Assembly (NCBI GenBank): GCA_965221165.1
Contig: CBDCRP010000003.1
Coordinates: 928,001 to 992,000, forward strand
Length of the DNA: 64,000 nucleotides
Direction: 5' to 3'
Source of the DNA: a bacterium
GTDB lineage: Bacteria; UBA8248
The notes below the pieces were generated by a model, which saw only the letters and a program-made list of their open reading frames with translations, was not told the DNA's origin and did not search any database. Below are positions 6,842 to 41,600 of the stretch, one piece after another; position 1 is the first letter of the stretch, and each line of letters starts with the position of its first letter. Made by a program: the position numbers and the translations under genes.

Positions 6842-6896
6842 CCTCGCCTCGATTTGTAGCGCGCTGATTGTTCGAGCAGTATAGTTTTTCTGAAGT

Positions 6897-7058
6897 GCTG
6901 CAGGGGGGCTTTCCTCAGGAAAGCCCGGGAAGCCGGTGAGAATCCGGCGCGGACCCGCCACTGTAACCGGGGACGAAAGCGGCCGAAACCACCGGCGTAA
7001 GGCGCCGGGAAGGGGTCGTGAGTAGGTGGATCCGGAAGCCAGGAGACCGCCCTGCGGC
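6897..7058 (+). promoter_or_regulatory. Cobalamin riboswitch 1
   Basis: GGGAA-GCCGGTGAGAATCCGGC, CCCGCCACTGTAA, GGGAAGG, AGCCAGGAGACC B12 box; P1 GCTGCAGGG/CCCTGCGGC. Confidence 0.92.
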
Positions 7059-7218
7059 AACCTTTTGACCCGTCACGTCCTCGCGGAACGGGAGATGGGT
7101 GGCATCTTGCGCATCATCACACCCGAAATCGACGGCACTACAGCACGCGCGAGTATCACGCACGCGCTGCGTTAAAGTTTTCGCCATAGGAGCGGTGGAC
7201 CCGTCCGCCGCCAAAACA

Positions 7219-7362
7219 GCCGGCAGGTGTTCGGGAATCCGGTGTAAGACCGGAGCTGCCCGGCAGCTGTAAGCGACGCGCTTTTCATAATATCCACCGG
7301 GACACCCCCGGGAAGGAATGAAGAGCGGCCATCGGCGCGAGCCAGAAGACCGGCCTGTCGGC
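7219..7362 (+). promoter_or_regulatory. Cobalamin riboswitch 2
   Basis: AGGTG, GGGAATCCGGTGTAAGACCGG, GCAGCTGTAA, GGGAAGG, GAGCCAGAAGACC; P1 GCCGGCAGG/CCTGTCGGC. Confidence 0.88.
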
Positions 7363-7425
7363 ATCTCCCCTGCGACCCTCCGGGGTCGGTTTCGAGCGCT
7401 TGGGCCGCTCAAGGAGTGTAATCCC

Positions 7426-17359: not shown

Positions 17360-18260
17360 TGAAAACGCGGCCGAGGAGGGAGGGTTTTGCCGACCGATGA
17401 AGGAGGGTTTGCCGAAATGACGGTTATCGGGTAGGGACCGTTCGCGAACGGCCCCTACGAGGGTGGAATCCCCTGCAAAGTTCACACCGCAGTCACTCCG
17501 GCGCATGCGGGTGGCAACCGAAAGGTTGGCCAGAACCGAGGAGAGAAGAGATATTACGGCCTTTCATTCTTTTTTCGATGGGGTCGGCATGACGGCGAAA
17601 GGGAAAAGAAAAATTCCTGGGTTCCGCAAACCCTCCCTCATCGGGGTTGTTGAAAAACCCCTCCTCGCTCGGAATTGACCACTGCCGTCATTCCGGCGAA
17701 AGCCGGAATCCATTGCCGAGCGAAATGACAATACTCCGGCTTTTCATCTCCCCGTCATTGGCGGGAATCAATCAGAAAATAAAAAACAAAGGCAAAACAC
17801 ATGGATTCCGGCTTTCGCCGGAATGACGAACAAAGCCGCACCGCCTCGTAGTGACACGGTTCCTCCCTCTTCGGTCGGAATCGACTCCTCGGGGCTGTCA
17901 CACTGCCCCTCCTCGGGGCTGTCCCACAAGTCGCGACCTCGGACAGGCACAGGGCCTGTCCGCTACGGCCCCCCCCCGTCCCTGGTTGGTTCCATTCGCC
18001 GAATCACGAAATCGGGACTTTTCAACAACCCCTTCATCGGTCGGGTTTGACACCGGAATGACGATCAAAACAAAGGCGGGCGGACACGCAGGTGGCAGAC
18101 ATATATGTCTGACCCTACCCCTTCATTCGGAGTGTAGGAGTCGCATACATGCGACCCGCATACCGAACGGGAAGAGCCGCATAGCGAACGGGGAGGACCG
18201 CATATATGCGGCCCCTACAATTCCTGCGACTGCGCCTGCGCGCCGGAATGACGATCCAAA
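17360..18260. repeat. Large nested repeat mosaic (three palindromic repeat families)
   Basis: GTAG..CTAC REPs, GTCATTCCGGCGAAAGCCGGAATCCA pairs and CCTCATCGGTCGGGTTTGAC-type units. Confidence 0.85.
17643..18032. mobile_element. MITE-like element with 14-bp terminal inverted repeats
   Basis: GGGGTTGTTGAAAA (17643-17656) and TTTTCAACAACCCC (18019-18032); flanks CTCATC/TTCATC; no transposase inside. Confidence 0.55.
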
Positions 18261-18335
18261 ACAAAGCCGGGCGTGATAGGGTGGGGCTACATACACCAAC
18301 GAAAAAATCTACAAACGCCAACCCCGGAGCGCGCC

Positions 18336-19361
18336 ATGAACGAGATGGATGAATTCGAATTTTTTCTGGAAAAACCCTGGTCCGACGGCTTCCCCGTGGT
18401 CACGCCCACCGAGGAGCGCATCGAGCGCATGCTCACGGGAACGAAGAGACCGCCCGATGAGGCGCTCTGCAAAGTCCCGCCGCTCGATGAGGTCGCCACC
18501 GTGCGGAGCGTCGCCGTCCACGCCGTCATGGCGGGGTGCAGACCCGAATACCTACCCGTCGTCATCGCGGCTTTGGAGCTCATCGTGGAAGAGGCGCTCA
18601 ACCTGCGCGGCGTGCAGGCCACCATGCACAGCGTAGCGCCCCTGCTCATCGTGAACGGCCCCTATGGGAAACGCATCGGGGTAACGGGCGGGCAGGGTTG
18701 TTTCGGCCCCGGCTTTCGGGCGAACGCCACCATCGGCCGCGCGGTGAGGCTCCTGCTGCTCAACCTGGGCGGCGGCGTGGCGCGCGTGGCCTGCATGAGC
18801 ATCTACAGCCAGCCGTCTCGCTTCACGTTCTGCATAGCCGAGAATGAGGACGAAGGCCCCTGGGAGTCGCTGGCCGTATCGCGGGGATACGGCCCGGATG
18901 AGGACGTCATCACCGCCGTCATGGTGGAAAACCCCCACATCGTCTTCAACGACGTGGACCGCGACCCCAAGCGCCTCCTCGTCTCCCACATGGACAACAT
19001 GGCGGCGATGGGTTCGTGGCCCATCTGGGTGAGGTCCGACACCGTGCTCATCCTCTCGCCCGAACACGCCCGCCTGTGCGAGCGGGCCGGGTTCTCGCGC
19101 GCGGACGTGCACGCATATGTTTGTGAGAACGCGGGGCGCACCGTGGGGGAACTCAAGCGCGGCGGCCCCTGGAGGGAGGATAAGCCGAACGGGCGGTGGA
19201 CCTATCCGGTGGACAGGGAGGATGATGATTTCTTCATCCGCGTCGTGAACGAACCGGAAGACCTACACCTCATCGTCGCAGGCGGCAACGGGCCGCTCGG
19301 CGCGGTGATGCCCGGCTGGAACGGCGCGAGCCGGGCGGTGCACCGGGCGTATACGCCGTAG
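18336..19361 (+). CDS. Conserved hypothetical protein (SDGFPVVTPT family)
   Basis: WSDGFPVVTPT, AVMAGCRPEYLPV, GPGFRANATIGRA, AENE..PW motifs. Confidence 0.8.
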   Translation: MNEMDEFEFFLEKPWSDGFPVVTPTEERIERMLTGTKRPPDEALCKVPPLDEVATVRSVAVHAVMAGCRPEYLPVVIAALELIVEEALNLRGVQATMHSVAPLLIVNGPYGKRIGVTGGQGCFGPGFRANATIGRAVRLLLLNLGGGVARVACMSIYSQPSRFTFCIAENEDEGPWESLAVSRGYGPDEDVITAVMVENPHIVFNDVDRDPKRLLVSHMDNMAAMGSWPIWVRSDTVLILSPEHARLCERAGFSRADVHAYVCENAGRTVGELKRGGPWREDKPNGRWTYPVDREDDDFFIRVVNEPEDLHLIVAGGNGPLGAVMPGWNGASRAVHRAYTP

Positions 19362-19590: not shown

Positions 19591-19783
19591 AACACGCTCG
19601 AATCAAGAAACCACCCCTCCCTGAAGTCAGTTCCCTCTTTTCACTCCCTCTTGAGACACATTTCCGACCGTAGCAGGGGCACCTATAGAAAACGCATTTC
19701 CTCCTCTCATCGCTCGAAACAGCAGTCTTCCCCTCCTCGGGGAAGACTGACCTTTCACTCAAAATGGATGAAAAAATCATTCC

Positions 19784-19813
19784 TTGACAAACCCAAAAAA
19801 GCTATCGCAAGAT
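19784..19813 (+). promoter_or_regulatory. Sigma70-like promoter, copy 1
   Basis: TTGACA-18 nt-CAAGAT. Confidence 0.55.
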
Positions 19814-19913
19814 GTACATTGCGATGCAATCCACGAGGTGAAGAGGCTTCGGCTGTTCGCCAACCACGAGGCGATCTTCTTCTGGAAGGTCGAAAATCGG
19901 CGAGAAATTCACC

Positions 19914-19943
19914 TTGACAAAATGCAAAAAGCTGTAGCAATAT
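19914..19943 (+). promoter_or_regulatory. Sigma70-like promoter, copy 2
   Basis: TTGACA-18 nt-CAATAT; predicted start at about 19948-19950 coincides with the 5' end of a long stem. Confidence 0.6.
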
Positions 19944-19947
19944 CAGA

Positions 19948-20501
19948 GTTGCGACACAGATCCATGAGGTGCAGTCGATTTCGGGCTGCTCGCTGAATAC
20001 AACACGTCTTTCTTCTTGAAGGACGGAATAGGCGAGAACCCACCTCAAGAACCTATACCTCGTGGATTGTGTCGCAACCAGCCCGGACTGCGTGTCCGCA
20101 AGGTTGCCGGCCCCGGTGCTGCCCAAAGACTCACAAGTGGTTTTGTTGCGGCCCGTATAGATACACAAGGTAAGAAGGTTAATCGTAGAAAACCGGAAAT
20201 ATGCTGAAAAATCCCTTTTTCTACTCCGGGTTCGCAGCAGCAGGCGCCTTCGGCGTGAGAGGCGGCACGGGTGACGCCGCCATGAGCCTCATCGGCGCTT
20301 ACAAACAGTAGAGCAAGACGCCTTGCCTTGGCTCTTGGGTTTTATATACGACGCCCGGGGAGAAGGCGGACAAATAAAGAAGAGTAAAGGGGGCTGCTCA
20401 TTGGTTGCTTCCCTCGTGATTGAGCAAACTGTACCGCTCCTTGCTTAGAGTTTGAGTCCTCGAGCCGGGAACGGGAACAATGGGCAACCCCCGCTTTTTT
20501 T
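19948..20501 (+). ncRNA. Candidate large structured non-coding RNA (about 550 nt), family unrecognised
   Basis: Promoter upstream; about 22-bp stem 19948-19970/20057-20078; further hairpins; possible pseudoknot; terminal stem 20389-20403/20478-20492 followed by T7; no credible CDS. Confidence 0.55.
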
Positions 20502-20533
20502 ATAACGCGCTTTGGCGACGCCTGGCAATTCCG

Positions 20534-20623
20534 AAAAAGGGGCTATCCCCTCCCCGTTTTTGACTGGAATCAAGAATGTTCGCCGAGAGGTGAATCGGGA
20601 GAGGGGGCGAGCCCTTTTTTTTT
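20534..20623. terminator. Branched, bidirectional terminator-like structure
   Basis: AAAAAGGGGCT..CCCCTCCCCG / CGGGAGAGGGG..AGCCCTTTTTTTTT enclosing two small hairpins. Confidence 0.6.
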
Positions 20624-20699
20624 GCGTAGCGGCGTTTTACTTCTCCCGTTCCCTCCCTTCTCGACCCGAGCAGTACCTCCTTCATCAGTCGGCAATGAC

Positions 20700-20989: not shown

Positions 20990-21177
20990 CATTTGGCGTT
21001 ACCGCGCAGGCCCGGGCGTGTGGCAAGGTGTCGCCCGCCGGGCGAAACGCCGGCGCATAAGTGAAAATGTCTGAAAAAAGGGGGAAAAAGGGGGAAATAT
21101 CTGAAAATAAGTGAAAATTTATCTCGTTGATAAATAAGGGGTTTCAGTGATTTCCCCACGTATGGCGGCCTATGGGA
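20990..21177 (+). repeat. Dispersed repeat with 10-bp phased GAAAA tracts, copy 1
   Basis: AAGTGAAAAT GTCTGAAAAA AGGGGGAAAA AGGGGGAAAT ATCTGAAAAT AAGTGAAAAT then TTGATAAATAAGGGGTT; diverged copy at about 50291-50478. Confidence 0.7.
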
Positions 21178-22784
21178 CGCTCCCGGGCCATAAATGTTTT
21201 TTCGGCCATTTTCACGAAAATGTTGACCCGCCAGCGCGCGTCGTCGGCTTCGGGGCAATCCGCCCGGTAGTGCGCGCCCCGGCTCTCGGTTCTGAGCAGC
21301 GCGGCCTCCACCACCGCCTGTGCGCTCAGGCACATGTTCTCCGCCTCGACGGCCTCGAGCAGGCGGGCGGGTGCGCTCCCCCCACACGAAGCCAGAGCGC
21401 CCTGGATATCCCCGAGCGCGCCCCGCGCCTCTTCGAGCGGGCCCTCCTCGCGCACGATGCCCGCCTTCTCCCAGCAGAGCCTCTTGAGCTTGCGGACCAA
21501 GTCCACCGCGCGATTCGGCCTGCCCGCGCGCTCCGAGAGCGCAACCGCGTGGGCCTTCGCGAGCGCAGGACCCGGCGTCGCGCATTCTGAGCTTCGCGCA
21601 AGCTCGCTTGCGGCCTTCCCCGCGCGCCAGCCCAGCGTATGGGCCTCGGTGAAGGCGTTGTTCGAGAGGCGGTTCGCCCCGTGCGCACCCGCGCTCACCT
21701 CGCCCGCCGCGTAGAGGCCCGGCATGGCCGTCGCTCCCTCGCCGTCAATCGGCACCCCGCCCATGAAGAAGTGGGCCTTGGGCGAGACGTAGATATCGCT
21801 GCCGTGGGGCGAAACGCCCCTCCTGGCGAAGAGCTTGAGATTGTCGGGGGCGAAATGCTCCAGATCCTCCACCGAGATGCCGGATAAATCCATCTGCACG
21901 GCGCCATCCACCCCGCCGCCACGCATGAGTTCGAGATAGACCGCCCGCGCCATCAGGTCGCGCGTGGCGTCGCCGCCGCCTGGCACGTCGCGCATGATGT
22001 CCTCCCCGTCCCGGTTCAGGAACCGCGCACCGAGCGGGAACAGCGTGGGCGCCACCACCATGTTGCTCTCGGGCCGCTTGATGACGGCCGGGTAGAACTG
22101 AACGAACTCCATATCGGAGAGCGCAAGGCCCGCCCTCAGCGCCATCGCGAAGCCGTCTCCCGTGATGCCGCCCGCATTCGTGTTCTCCGCAAAAATCTGC
22201 CCCGCGCCGCCCGTGGCCAGTATGGTGGCGCCTGCGCGTATGGCGTACACCTCGCCGCTCCTCGTGTGAAAACCCATGACGCCCCCGCAGACCCCATCAT
22301 CCACGAGCAAATCGACGGTCATGACGTTTTCGAGAATACGGGCGGCGTCTGCGTCGAGTTTCTTGCGCAGCGGCCTCGCCACCTCCACGCCCCAGTTCTT
22401 GATCGGGTAAATTCCGCGGTCTTGTCTGTGGCCGCCCTGGGGGTGTAAGTCGAACGACCCGTCCTCGCGCGTGATGAAGGGAATCCCCCAGTCGTAAAGA
22501 TCGCGTATGCGAGCGGCGGAATCCGCGCACATGGCATGGGCGACGGCGGGGTGATTGAGGCGTGCGCCTCCCTCCAGGGTATCTTCCAGGAACAAAGCCG
22601 CGCTGTCATCGGGCGCGAAATTCGCCGAATGTCCCGCGCGGGCCATGACGATATTGCCCGAACTCCCGGGAGATTGCTTGCAGACCAAAAGCGCGTCCGC
22701 GCCGCTCTCCATCGCGGCGATGGCCGCCGTCATGGCGGCGGGGCCGCCGCCCAGGATCAATACGTCGCAGGAGAGATTCTGCAC
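21144..22784 (-). CDS. FAD-dependent oxidoreductase, L-aspartate oxidase/SdhA-FrdA family
   Basis: LGGGPAA, LATGG, MEFVQFYP, HFFMGG, HGANRLSNN, RTESRGAH. Confidence 0.88.
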   Translation of the reverse strand: MQNLSCDVLILGGGPAAMTAAIAAMESGADALLVCKQSPGSSGNIVMARAGHSANFAPDDSAALFLEDTLEGGARLNHPAVAHAMCADSAARIRDLYDWGIPFITREDGSFDLHPQGGHRQDRGIYPIKNWGVEVARPLRKKLDADAARILENVMTVDLLVDDGVCGGVMGFHTRSGEVYAIRAGATILATGGAGQIFAENTNAGGITGDGFAMALRAGLALSDMEFVQFYPAVIKRPESNMVVAPTLFPLGARFLNRDGEDIMRDVPGGGDATRDLMARAVYLELMRGGGVDGAVQMDLSGISVEDLEHFAPDNLKLFARRGVSPHGSDIYVSPKAHFFMGGVPIDGEGATAMPGLYAAGEVSAGAHGANRLSNNAFTEAHTLGWRAGKAASELARSSECATPGPALAKAHAVALSERAGRPNRAVDLVRKLKRLCWEKAGIVREEGPLEEARGALGDIQGALASCGGSAPARLLEAVEAENMCLSAQAVVEAALLRTESRGAHYRADCPEADDARWRVNIFVKMAEKTFMARERPIGRHTWGNH

Positions 22785-41029: not shown

Positions 41030-41600
41030 AATGATGCAAGCAGGCACGGGGACTTGTCCATACGGCATCAATCTTGAGCGATGAGGGAGGTTTTTATTTT
41101 CTTGTAGGGGCGGACCCCTGTGCCTATCCGCATTTGTTTTAGGTTTTCAATGTAATGTAGGGGCCGCATATATGCGGCCCTTTTGTGGCTTTTGAAAAAG
41201 CCCCTTTGGGGTTGGCTTGCGGGTCGCATGTATGCAACCCCTACACCCCGAATATGCAATGATGGAATGCGTCGGACATATGGGGCCGCCCCTACAACCC
41301 CCCCCTCATAGCTGGGGCTTGATCCACTGCCGTCATTCCGGCGAAAGCCGGAATCCAAAAAGAGACGAGGTGCGCATATTGCGGCATTCCCATTTCTCGA
41401 TGTTCGGGTCGTAAATGACAGTATAAAAACGAAAGGCAAATGGATTCCGGCTTTCGCCGGAATGACGAACAAATCCGAACCACCTCGTATGGACAGGTCG
41501 CGGCCTCGGACAGGCACAGGGGCCTGTCCCTACAATACGAAGAGCCGAAAAACCTCGCTTCCCACTCGGGTTTTGCCACTTGTCGTTGCCCCTACCCTGT
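41030..41600. repeat. REP-like mosaic between convergent genes
   Basis: GTAG REPs plus GTCATTCCGGCGAAAGCCGGAATCCA..TGGATTCCGGCTTTCGCCGGAATGAC doublet like that at 17687-17827. Confidence 0.85.

Follow-up and report, generated by a model that had tools for sequence, protein, structure and literature searches.

A structured RNA family and the probable remains of a surface-lipoprotein cassette in an intergenic gap of a UBA8248 bacterium

Introduction

This report concerns an 846-nt region (positions 19780-20625) that lies in a 1.8-kb intergenic gap of a bacterium of the GTDB lineage UBA8248. The window, meaning the whole stretch of DNA that was analysed, is 64,000 nt long (assembly GCA_965221165.1, contig CBDCRP010000003.1, positions 928,001 to 992,000 of the forward strand), and coordinates refer to it unless stated otherwise. 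An earlier reading of the bare letters, here called the original prediction, had proposed a single ornate noncoding RNA (ncRNA) of about 550 nt in the size class of OLE and ROOL, with several adjacent small RNAs as a fallback. I find that the region is a mosaic of tandem promoter-plus-RNA units, a 5' untranslated region (UTR) element, a deletion scar, and a 3' UTR with an extended hairpin, the rod. The explanation that I consider likely is that the locus is the shell of a surface-lipoprotein cassette and that its complete RNA unit, U2, is a cis-acting, riboswitch-like leader from a multi-copy family. Throughout, G000 is the genome of the window and G005 its nearest relative; other genomes are labelled Gnnn and fetched loci Lnnn.

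Results

The region is a mosaic

The gap is bordered by a 362-aa open reading frame (ORF) without a Pfam hit (18273-19361, plus strand) and by a convergent gene for a FAD-binding flavoprotein of the aspartate-oxidase/succinate-dehydrogenase type (21144-22784, minus strand). That 19780-20625 holds no credible coding sequence (CDS), as originally claimed, is borne out: its ORFs are short, Pfam finds nothing in the two longest, and many 1-nt indels separate the orthologues.

When the 846-nt region was used as a query against 41 related genomes, 18 matched, G000 included, among them 17 of the 22 others of the genus. The matches to query positions 1-440 are 77-87% identical, number about one per genome and keep synteny with the end of the upstream gene. 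The rod, positions 597-718, is found in up to about 12 copies per genome (80-93% identity), positions 363-446 are repeated in relatives as well, and these two repeated pieces sit 2-5.5 kb apart on one strand there. Identity to G005 is 96.6% for U2, 94.3% for its promoter, 93.3% for the rod, 90% for the partial unit U1, 80.7% for the coding remnant and 75-83% for the spacer. A single RNA of about 550 nt is not supported by these results, since its parts differ in copy number and partners, its middle is a deletion scar and its conservation is uneven; no structured unit longer than 400 nt is shared as one across species, the parts being separated by genes. The long-range pairings offered in its favour are not confirmed: GCCCGGA(20081)/TCCGGGT(20225), GGCGGC/GCCGCC and AGAGC/GCTCT span the deletion junction or fall within the coding remnant or the variable 3' UTR, and relatives whose gene is intact have the partners 2-5 kb from each other or not at all. 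The fallback of several adjacent small RNAs comes close to the truth, U2 being a real structured RNA. The region is indeed largely free of repeat families in G000, which is not so in its relatives, where the rod and the element at 20142-20224 are multi-copy.

Two tandem units and their promoters

Two tandem copies of one sequence (19782-19911 and 19912-20041), both starting with CCTTGACA, make up the first 260 nt, a duplication that the original prediction had not noticed. The promoter TTGACA-18-CAATAT of the original prediction is present at 19914-19943 on the plus strand (promoter P2: TTGACA 19914-19919, 18-nt spacer, CAATAT 19938-19943); across 11 orthologous loci the two boxes show little or no variation, TTGACA and TGTAGCAAnAT being the invariant strings. 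Overlooked at that time was a further promoter and unit at 19784-19911. This promoter-like site, P1, is on the same strand (TTGACA 19784-19789, 18-nt spacer, CAAGAT 19808-19813), and its TTGACA is kept in 10 of the 11 orthologous loci (G005 has TTGGCA), with CAAnAT conserved. A consensus promoter scanner called no site, with 0.9 expected, and passed over both P1 and P2, so the case for these promoters is their conservation. A TTGACA(A) box lies about 35 nt upstream of all four RNA copies in G000, and in the three paralogues of U2 there it takes the form TTGACAA, with a -10-like hexamer, at the same distance as at U2. The box is also found upstream of 15 of the 18 listed paralogues and of most of the seven copies examined in 'Candidatus Binatia' metagenome-assembled genomes (MAGs).

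U2 (19947-20091, plus strand) is the sole full-length match to the RNA model within the window, scoring 168.5 bits with model R1 and 125.9 bits with model R2. U1 (19819-19911, plus strand) is a conserved partial copy, recognised as a 130-nt direct repeat of U2 and by a partial model match (19825-19926, model positions 23-110, 21.2 bits, E 0.005). It retains the 5' arm and GAAAAUCGGCGAGAA together with a small hairpin and a part that resembles P3/P4, has neither 3' arm nor tail, and shows an altered internal loop. The arm at 20057-20077 is complementary to 19949-19970 and, as the original prediction had overlooked, to 19819-19839 as well. The hairpin of U1 covaries in the orthologue alignment A1, and U1 folded alone is unremarkable (z = -0.86). 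Further tandem arrays consist of U1, U2 and a third unit at the orthologous locus in relatives, of three units in L028, and of pairs in metagenome contigs.

Fold and covariation of U2

The 22-bp stem that had been noticed from the sequence is the closing helix of U2, P1 (19948-19970/20057-20078), and it is real: all 22 pairs show compensatory changes across 54 distinct homologues. Within it, on the plus strand throughout, follow helix P2 (19972-19976/19984-19988), a segment X (CGGGCUG, 19982-19988), helix P3 (19989-19994/20031-20036), the loop GAAUACAACA (19995-20004), helix P4 (20005-20012/20017-20024) and the loop GGAAUA (20025-20030), and then GAACCCACC and a linker; the tail, CAGCCCG, stands at 20079-20085. 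The fold of the family has a long P1, a three-way interior (P2, P3-P4), the conserved loops GAAUACAA.AC and GGAAUAG, and a 3' tail CRRCCCG after P1. U2 folds at -61.7 kcal/mol (z = -5.05), which none of 200 shuffles equalled.

The homologues of U2 show that this fold covaries. In an 11-way orthologue alignment the promoter boxes are invariant, hairpins carry compensatory changes and there are many 1-2-nt indels, which argues that the aligned region is not coding. RNAalifold on 12 sequences gave 41 pairs, 14 of them with compensatory changes, and among the 54 distinct sequences changes on both sides are found in 41 of 41 pairs. In the alignment of 55 members, 54 of them distinct, pairs form in 90.8% of cells, against 71.5% when shuffled, a lenient control for reasons given in the Discussion, and 37-42% when partners are slid. 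For 28 distinct metagenome sequences that stood outside model building the figure is 89.8%, against 64.1% in similarly lenient shuffles. One G000 paralogue (contig C3, 1934477-1934613, minus strand; promoter TTGACA-N17-TATTTT) has a closing helix that is wholly different from that of U2 yet complementary, with the interior unchanged. In a subclass (L186-L189, L182-L183 and most metagenome members) a longer hairpin with a conserved GGGGUAGCUCCCC-like element replaces the short P4, and many members of this subclass terminate in ...CGGCCCGGCACCA.

An Rfam search had been proposed, and no Rfam 15 family reaches its gathering score in the region. For the whole window, gathering thresholds yield only two cobalamin riboswitches and one tRNA, all outside the gap. 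Seven weak matches at E<=10 between 19300 and 21200 (mir-922, ctRNA_p42d and others) I judge to be spurious hairpin or terminator look-alikes. That U2 is a real structured RNA undetected by Rfam 15 is well supported.

One segment with two partners

Segment X can pair with either of two partners, the 5' half of P2 or the tail, and across the family all three covary jointly (CUG/CAG versus UCG/CGA or CGG). Among the 54 distinct sequences P2 is 90.2% paired, with AU in 21 and GC in 18 at one pair, and the X:tail helix, which was outside the model, is 91.6% paired, with CG in 34 and UA in 13 at one pair. The tail hairpin of L048 is a clean intrinsic terminator (CCCGGCCUC/GAGGCUGGG, then U6). The majority of copies have neither a terminator directly 3' of the RNA nor an obvious helix sequestering the Shine-Dalgarno (SD) sequence.

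The group of the C3 paralogue has a feature of its own. Downstream of the RNA, GGAGGAUUGUAUG duplicates the 3' strand of P1 and overlies an SD-like box together with the start codon AUG of a conserved 6-codon ORF (MGRSSS*, MGRAAS*, MGDLAS* or MGGLAS*), an arrangement that suggests control of translation in this group. In L041, L042, L053 and L057, which belong to it, the repeat of the P1 3' strand reads GGAGGAUUGUAUGGG and stands about 60 nt after the RNA.

Distribution and gene context of the family

A 12-sequence covariance model detected the RNA in 20 of 22 genomes of the genus, at 1-12 full-length copies each, with four copies in G000, and had a match in one of 19 genomes from eight other genera of the family. 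Model R2 reached 24 of 51 genomes of the phylum (G000 included), with 1-17 copies per genome in the genus. Beyond the phylum it matched two of 120 genomes of another phylum, weakly (about 38 bits) but with the conserved core present, and two of 151 genomes of the phylum of one 'Candidatus Binatia' MAG, which itself carries 10 copies. Two small neighbouring phyla gave nothing in six genomes and one genome, numbers too few to inform. Among 80 metagenome loci drawn by the core pattern, R2 made 30 matches in 27; the remaining 53 are chance pattern matches that lack the tail. One metagenomic member searched with BLAST against plasmids had no match.

Nearly half of the aligned members (27 of 55) precede, on the same strand, the SD and start codon of a protein with a signal peptide or lipobox, as judged by eye from the N-termini and not by a predictor. 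The distance from RNA to gene in these 27 is mostly 30-70 nt, and about 140-150 nt in four. Pfam searches of 28 such downstream proteins gave OMP_b-brl (3), Surface_Ag_2 (3), Sel1 (2), TbpB_B_D (2), CsgG (1), GH113 (1), Glyco_transf_25 (1) and DUF4875. Metagenomic and distant members have a like gene context, in which GT25 enzymes recur, and the copies of the Binatia MAGs have more mixed downstream genes. U2 of the window does not share this 5'-UTR position, its gene being deleted.

A probable lipoprotein cassette without its gene

What that gene was can be read from the relatives. The leader spacer (20092-20224, plus strand) matches sequence upstream of long ORFs there, and the 5'-UTR element within it (20142-20224), with a hairpin formed by GTAGAAAA (20185-20192) and TTTTCTAC (20217-20224), ends 20-25 nt before the ATG of an ORF of 585-851 aa in six of eight fetched loci (L021, L022, L023, L025, L026 and L027). 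These cassette ORFs begin with a signal peptide and an L-A-G-C lipobox and are multi-copy in relatives. About 70 nt past the stop codon of the lipoprotein gene, or of its operon, starts the rod. At the orthologous locus itself, seven of 12 genomes carry a gene with the motif M.F[RK][ED]K..LYAFA..LAGCGGGG 428-471 nt after U2, and G000 and G005 are without it. In L030 (G013) and L036 (G020) the place of the lipoprotein gene, about 480-510 nt downstream of U2, is taken by another ORF (...MPKRSKSRLTKRAVDAL...), which may be an insertion; the twelfth locus has no match to the motif text. The ancestral layout, kept in the seven genomes, is promoter P1, U1, promoter P2, U2, the third unit, the 5'-UTR element, SD and ATG, the gene, the 3' UTR and the rod.

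By-eye comparison of the window with five cassette ends places the scar. The match extends through ...AAAATCCCTTTTTCTACT to about 20225, is taken up again in the last codons (...AAGAFG...KQ*) and goes on across the 3' UTR blocks and the rod (20225-20505). From this break and resumption it follows that the SD, the start codon and nearly the entire CDS were deleted. The junction with the remnant of the last codons occupies 20225-20311, and the 36-aa ORF at 20201-20311, which ends ...AAAGAFG...IGAYKQ*, is a fusion across it. Next comes, on the plus strand like the remnant, the 3' UTR of the lost gene (20312-20388; AGCAAGACGCC ... GAAGAGTAAAG), with homologous blocks in cassettes of G007, G010, G011 and G016. 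Rod, 5'-UTR element and U1 are each single-copy in G000, and tblastn of one cassette lipoprotein (P0001) against G000 found no match, so that G000 seems to have lost this gene family. I hold it likely, jointly with the cassette and leader reading as a whole, that the CDS was deleted in the common ancestor of G000 and G005.

The rod (20389-20501 with its T-run, plus strand), a cassette 3' element, is as real as the original prediction had it: an extended hairpin of about 105 nt (20389-20492) that folds at -49.7 kcal/mol (z = -3.3), followed by T7 at 20495-20501. Such a T-run is found only in G000, with a weaker one in G005, and the rod probably acts as a terminator in G000; more generally its role may be that of a terminator, a stabiliser or a recombination boundary. 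Rods are present in many copies per relative (L013-L027), are 80-93% conserved, with a core more conserved than the preceding genes, and have no Rfam match. Beyond the rod lie two further terminator-like hairpins on the plus strand within 20538-20625, one at 20538-20551 followed by T5 and one at about 20600-20622 followed by T9. The stem and T-run of the latter weakly match the ctRNA_p42d model, a match that I read as the sign of a terminator and nothing more.

The relatives' lipoproteins (L021, L023, L025, L026 and L027) have 600-850 aa, alanine-rich repeats and a C-terminus ...GEFNA.F.DG.AAGAFGA.K.*. Pfam gave nothing at E<=0.01 for eight cassette lipoproteins except a weak Mtd_N hit. Their C-terminus (...GAFGARKQ*) resembles that of TbpB/fHbp-type surface lipoproteins, and the presence of TbpB_B_D in two of the 28 other downstream proteins lends indirect support to this likeness. 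About 400 nt upstream of two cassette genes (L025, about 975-1000; L027, about 1160-1185) there is a palindrome, GATAATTGTCGTTATCAGACAATAT, which resembles a Fur box and hints at iron control of some cassettes.

Kinship with sRNA-Xcc1

That U2 belongs to no known family is correct insofar as Rfam 15 does not detect it, and incorrect in that its core is related to RF02221, the small RNA (sRNA) sRNA-Xcc1. Six sites in five metagenomic loci gave RF02221 hits exactly at the RNA, at 28-34.5 bits and so below the gathering cut-off of 53, which no site reached; the window has no hit even at E<=10, and in 12 divergent members of the genus no Rfam family hits the RNA at E<=1. RF02221 was also not found in 51 genomes of the phylum, a weak negative because the control genomes were silent too.

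The likeness lies in the fold. The outer helix of the Rfam model (GgCcGGggG/CccCCgGcC) corresponds to the X:tail helix, and it encloses P3, an AAUACAA.AC loop, a short P4 hairpin and a GGAAUA loop, a core that is present in U2. The U2 family differs by about 45 extra 5' nt, which supply the 15-22-bp P1 and a P2 that competes with the outer helix. By sequence, the promoter lies about 35 nt upstream of the 5' strand of this extra P1, which would place the transcription start about 35 nt ahead of the outer helix.

In Xanthomonas campestris pv. campestris, sRNA-Xcc1 is reported to be an 88-nt RNA that gives a single band of about 100 nt on Northern blots and has mapped ends (PMC2996969). It has seven copies in Xylella, five of them in tandem (PMC12189769), which recalls the several and tandem copies per genome of the U2 family, and in the most widespread Xanthomonas integron cassette it lies upstream of symE and is transcribed independently of Pc (bioRxiv 10.1101/2025.06.18.660453), resembling the U2 family in having its own promoter and in standing co-directionally upstream of an accessory gene. 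A difference is that sRNA-Xcc1 is described as trans-acting, whereas for the U2 family a cis role is proposed. The U2 family is best described as a distant, 5'-extended variant of sRNA-Xcc1, and because it scores below the Rfam threshold I do not file it under RF02221. The trans-acting label reportedly goes back to the naming paper of Chen and colleagues from 2011.

Other features of the window

Tandem cobalamin riboswitch aptamers lie at 6885-7069 and 7208-7372 on the plus strand (114.5 and 90.6 bits). Two long near-perfect hairpins at 17689-17834 and 41324-41473 (CAUUCCGGCGAAAGCCGGAAUCC...) match the RNA model weakly, via their stems alone, and are probably another repeat family. The region is flanked by 42-nt inverted repeats (19542-19583/20712-20753), whose sequence (GGCCAACC...GGAATGACGA) is that of a dispersed family and which bound no unit; in G000 BLAST finds 23 matches to this family, lying in either orientation.

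Discussion

What could a leader such as U2 do? I propose that some ligand or factor favours one of two pairings, X:P2 or X:tail, the second being a pseudoknot-like outer helix. The chosen pairing would free or occupy the tail, which could form a hairpin with the following sequence. A few members might respond by termination, and the majority probably by a change in translation or RNA stability. In G000 no gene is left for U2 to control. Transcription from promoter P2 would cross the scar and reach the rod and its T7, a distance of about 550 nt. An RNA of this extent (about 19948 to about 20500) may well be made, as a decayed mRNA of leader, scar and 3' UTR, and because it would span this length the stretch came to resemble a long ncRNA gene. 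The functional core that remains would be U2, about 145 nt.

Likeness to riboswitches extends beyond the position of the fold. Generic riboswitch features are present in the covarying, aptamer-like fold and in the same-strand 5'-UTR position of the 27 members noted above. The fold is promoter-proximal and has invariant unpaired nucleotides, one segment has two partners that would be mutually exclusive, the tail may be shared with a downstream hairpin or terminator, copies are many and sometimes tandem, and surface or exported proteins are encoded downstream. Tandem arrangements also occur in c-di-GMP-I and glycine riboswitches. The family differs from known riboswitches in matching none in Rfam 15 and in that most members have no obvious terminator or SD-sequestering helix. 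A limited literature search found no relevant paper on riboswitch candidates with lipoprotein or signal-peptide genes. Taken together, the U2 family is a credible orphan-riboswitch candidate.

Several observations weigh against this picture of a cis-acting leader. The downstream genes are heterogeneous (exported proteins, GT25 enzymes, other cytoplasmic proteins), some members have no nearby ORF, and the whole points to no ligand. The tail forms the 5' half of a hairpin with the following sequence in 63 of 63 members, a count obtained with a loose energy criterion and no shuffle control, and a U-run follows only in a few (L048 and, less clearly, L143-L145). The shuffle controls overstate the support for the fold, since A4 and A6 are model-fitted alignments of related sequences. 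Transcription and both ends of the RNA are predicted from sequence. Finally, U2 in G000 is without a gene and yet 96.6% conserved, which fits action in trans at least as well as action in cis, and sRNA-Xcc1, the nearest known family, is reported as a stand-alone 88-nt trans-acting sRNA.

The last two points belong to the rival view that U2, and perhaps U1, are stand-alone trans-acting sRNAs with promoters of their own, their position upstream of genes being incidental or due to promoter sharing. Their own promoters, the ORF-less members, the single Northern band with mapped ends of sRNA-Xcc1 (PMC2996969) and its multiple and tandem copies in Xylella (PMC12189769) speak for this view. However, about half of the members keep a consistent orientation and spacing to an SD and ATG, across phyla; P1 differs wholly between paralogues while the interior is conserved, which is aptamer-like and not what a seed-pairing sRNA would show; and most copies have no terminator directly after the RNA. 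I therefore regard a purely trans-acting RNA as unlikely. It is nevertheless the main rival: U2, its promoter and the rod outconserve scar and spacer, so U2 may still be used, possibly in trans.

The large ncRNA of a new class at 19948-20500 draws its appeal from being framed by a promoter and by a strong hairpin with T7, and from the collinearity of the whole stretch in G005. That collinearity is confined to two of the 12 orthologous loci, whereas in seven others a gene of at least 356 codons stands between the parts; copy numbers are independent, identity to G005 is 93-97% in U2 and the rod but 75-83% in the middle, and the proposed long-range pairs cross the deletion junction. This makes the large RNA very improbable. 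To OLE, ROOL, GOLLD and raiA the locus is alike merely in the putative transcript length in G000; it differs in having no Rfam match and in being a composite of independently distributed parts and a scar. The 42-nt inverted repeats might be the ends of a non-autonomous mobile element, their arms being 93% complementary and 1128 nt apart, but the 42-mer is dispersed, the interior parts are single-copy in G000, and synteny of the locus with the upstream gene persists in relatives whose spacers differ, so this reading too is very improbable. Conservation of a protein, such as the 137-aa ORF at 19755-20168 (minus strand) or the 36-aa ORF at 20201-20311, is hardly conceivable: open frames do exist, but they have no Pfam hit, the 11-way alignment has many 1- and 2-nt indels in 19815-20092 together with paired compensatory changes, and the 36-aa ORF, besides being a fusion product, is 80.7% identical to G005 with seven gap columns. 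Further comparisons were dropped, none of them being supported by Rfam: a retron msr/msd, for which there is no reverse transcriptase gene nearby, 6S RNA, Y RNA, CsrB-like sponges and, for the rod, integron attC.

A bolder proposal, which I put forward as possible but doubtful, is that the U2 family (more than 150 relatives) and sRNA-Xcc1 form one orphan-riboswitch superfamily spread over at least three phyla, in which some ligand or cellular signal would switch CGGGYYG between P2 and the tail, and sRNA-Xcc1 would be the minimal aptamer instead of a base-pairing sRNA. If true, its regulon would take in surface lipoproteins, outer-membrane proteins, lipopolysaccharide glycosyltransferases and accessory genes.

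More generally, the locus adds a well-supported structured RNA that current Rfam models miss, and a covariance model of it could be used to annotate genomes. The link to sRNA-Xcc1 gives a poorly understood sRNA many more relatives, and more diverse ones, and the pattern among the relatives of U2 (an own promoter, a place upstream of exported or surface-protein genes, and two competing partners for one segment) makes the hypothesis of a cis-acting sensor testable at the bench. The locus also documents how a multi-copy lipoprotein cassette decays, its CDS lost and its leader and 3' element kept, a pattern that can mimic a long ncRNA gene when raw sequence is scanned.

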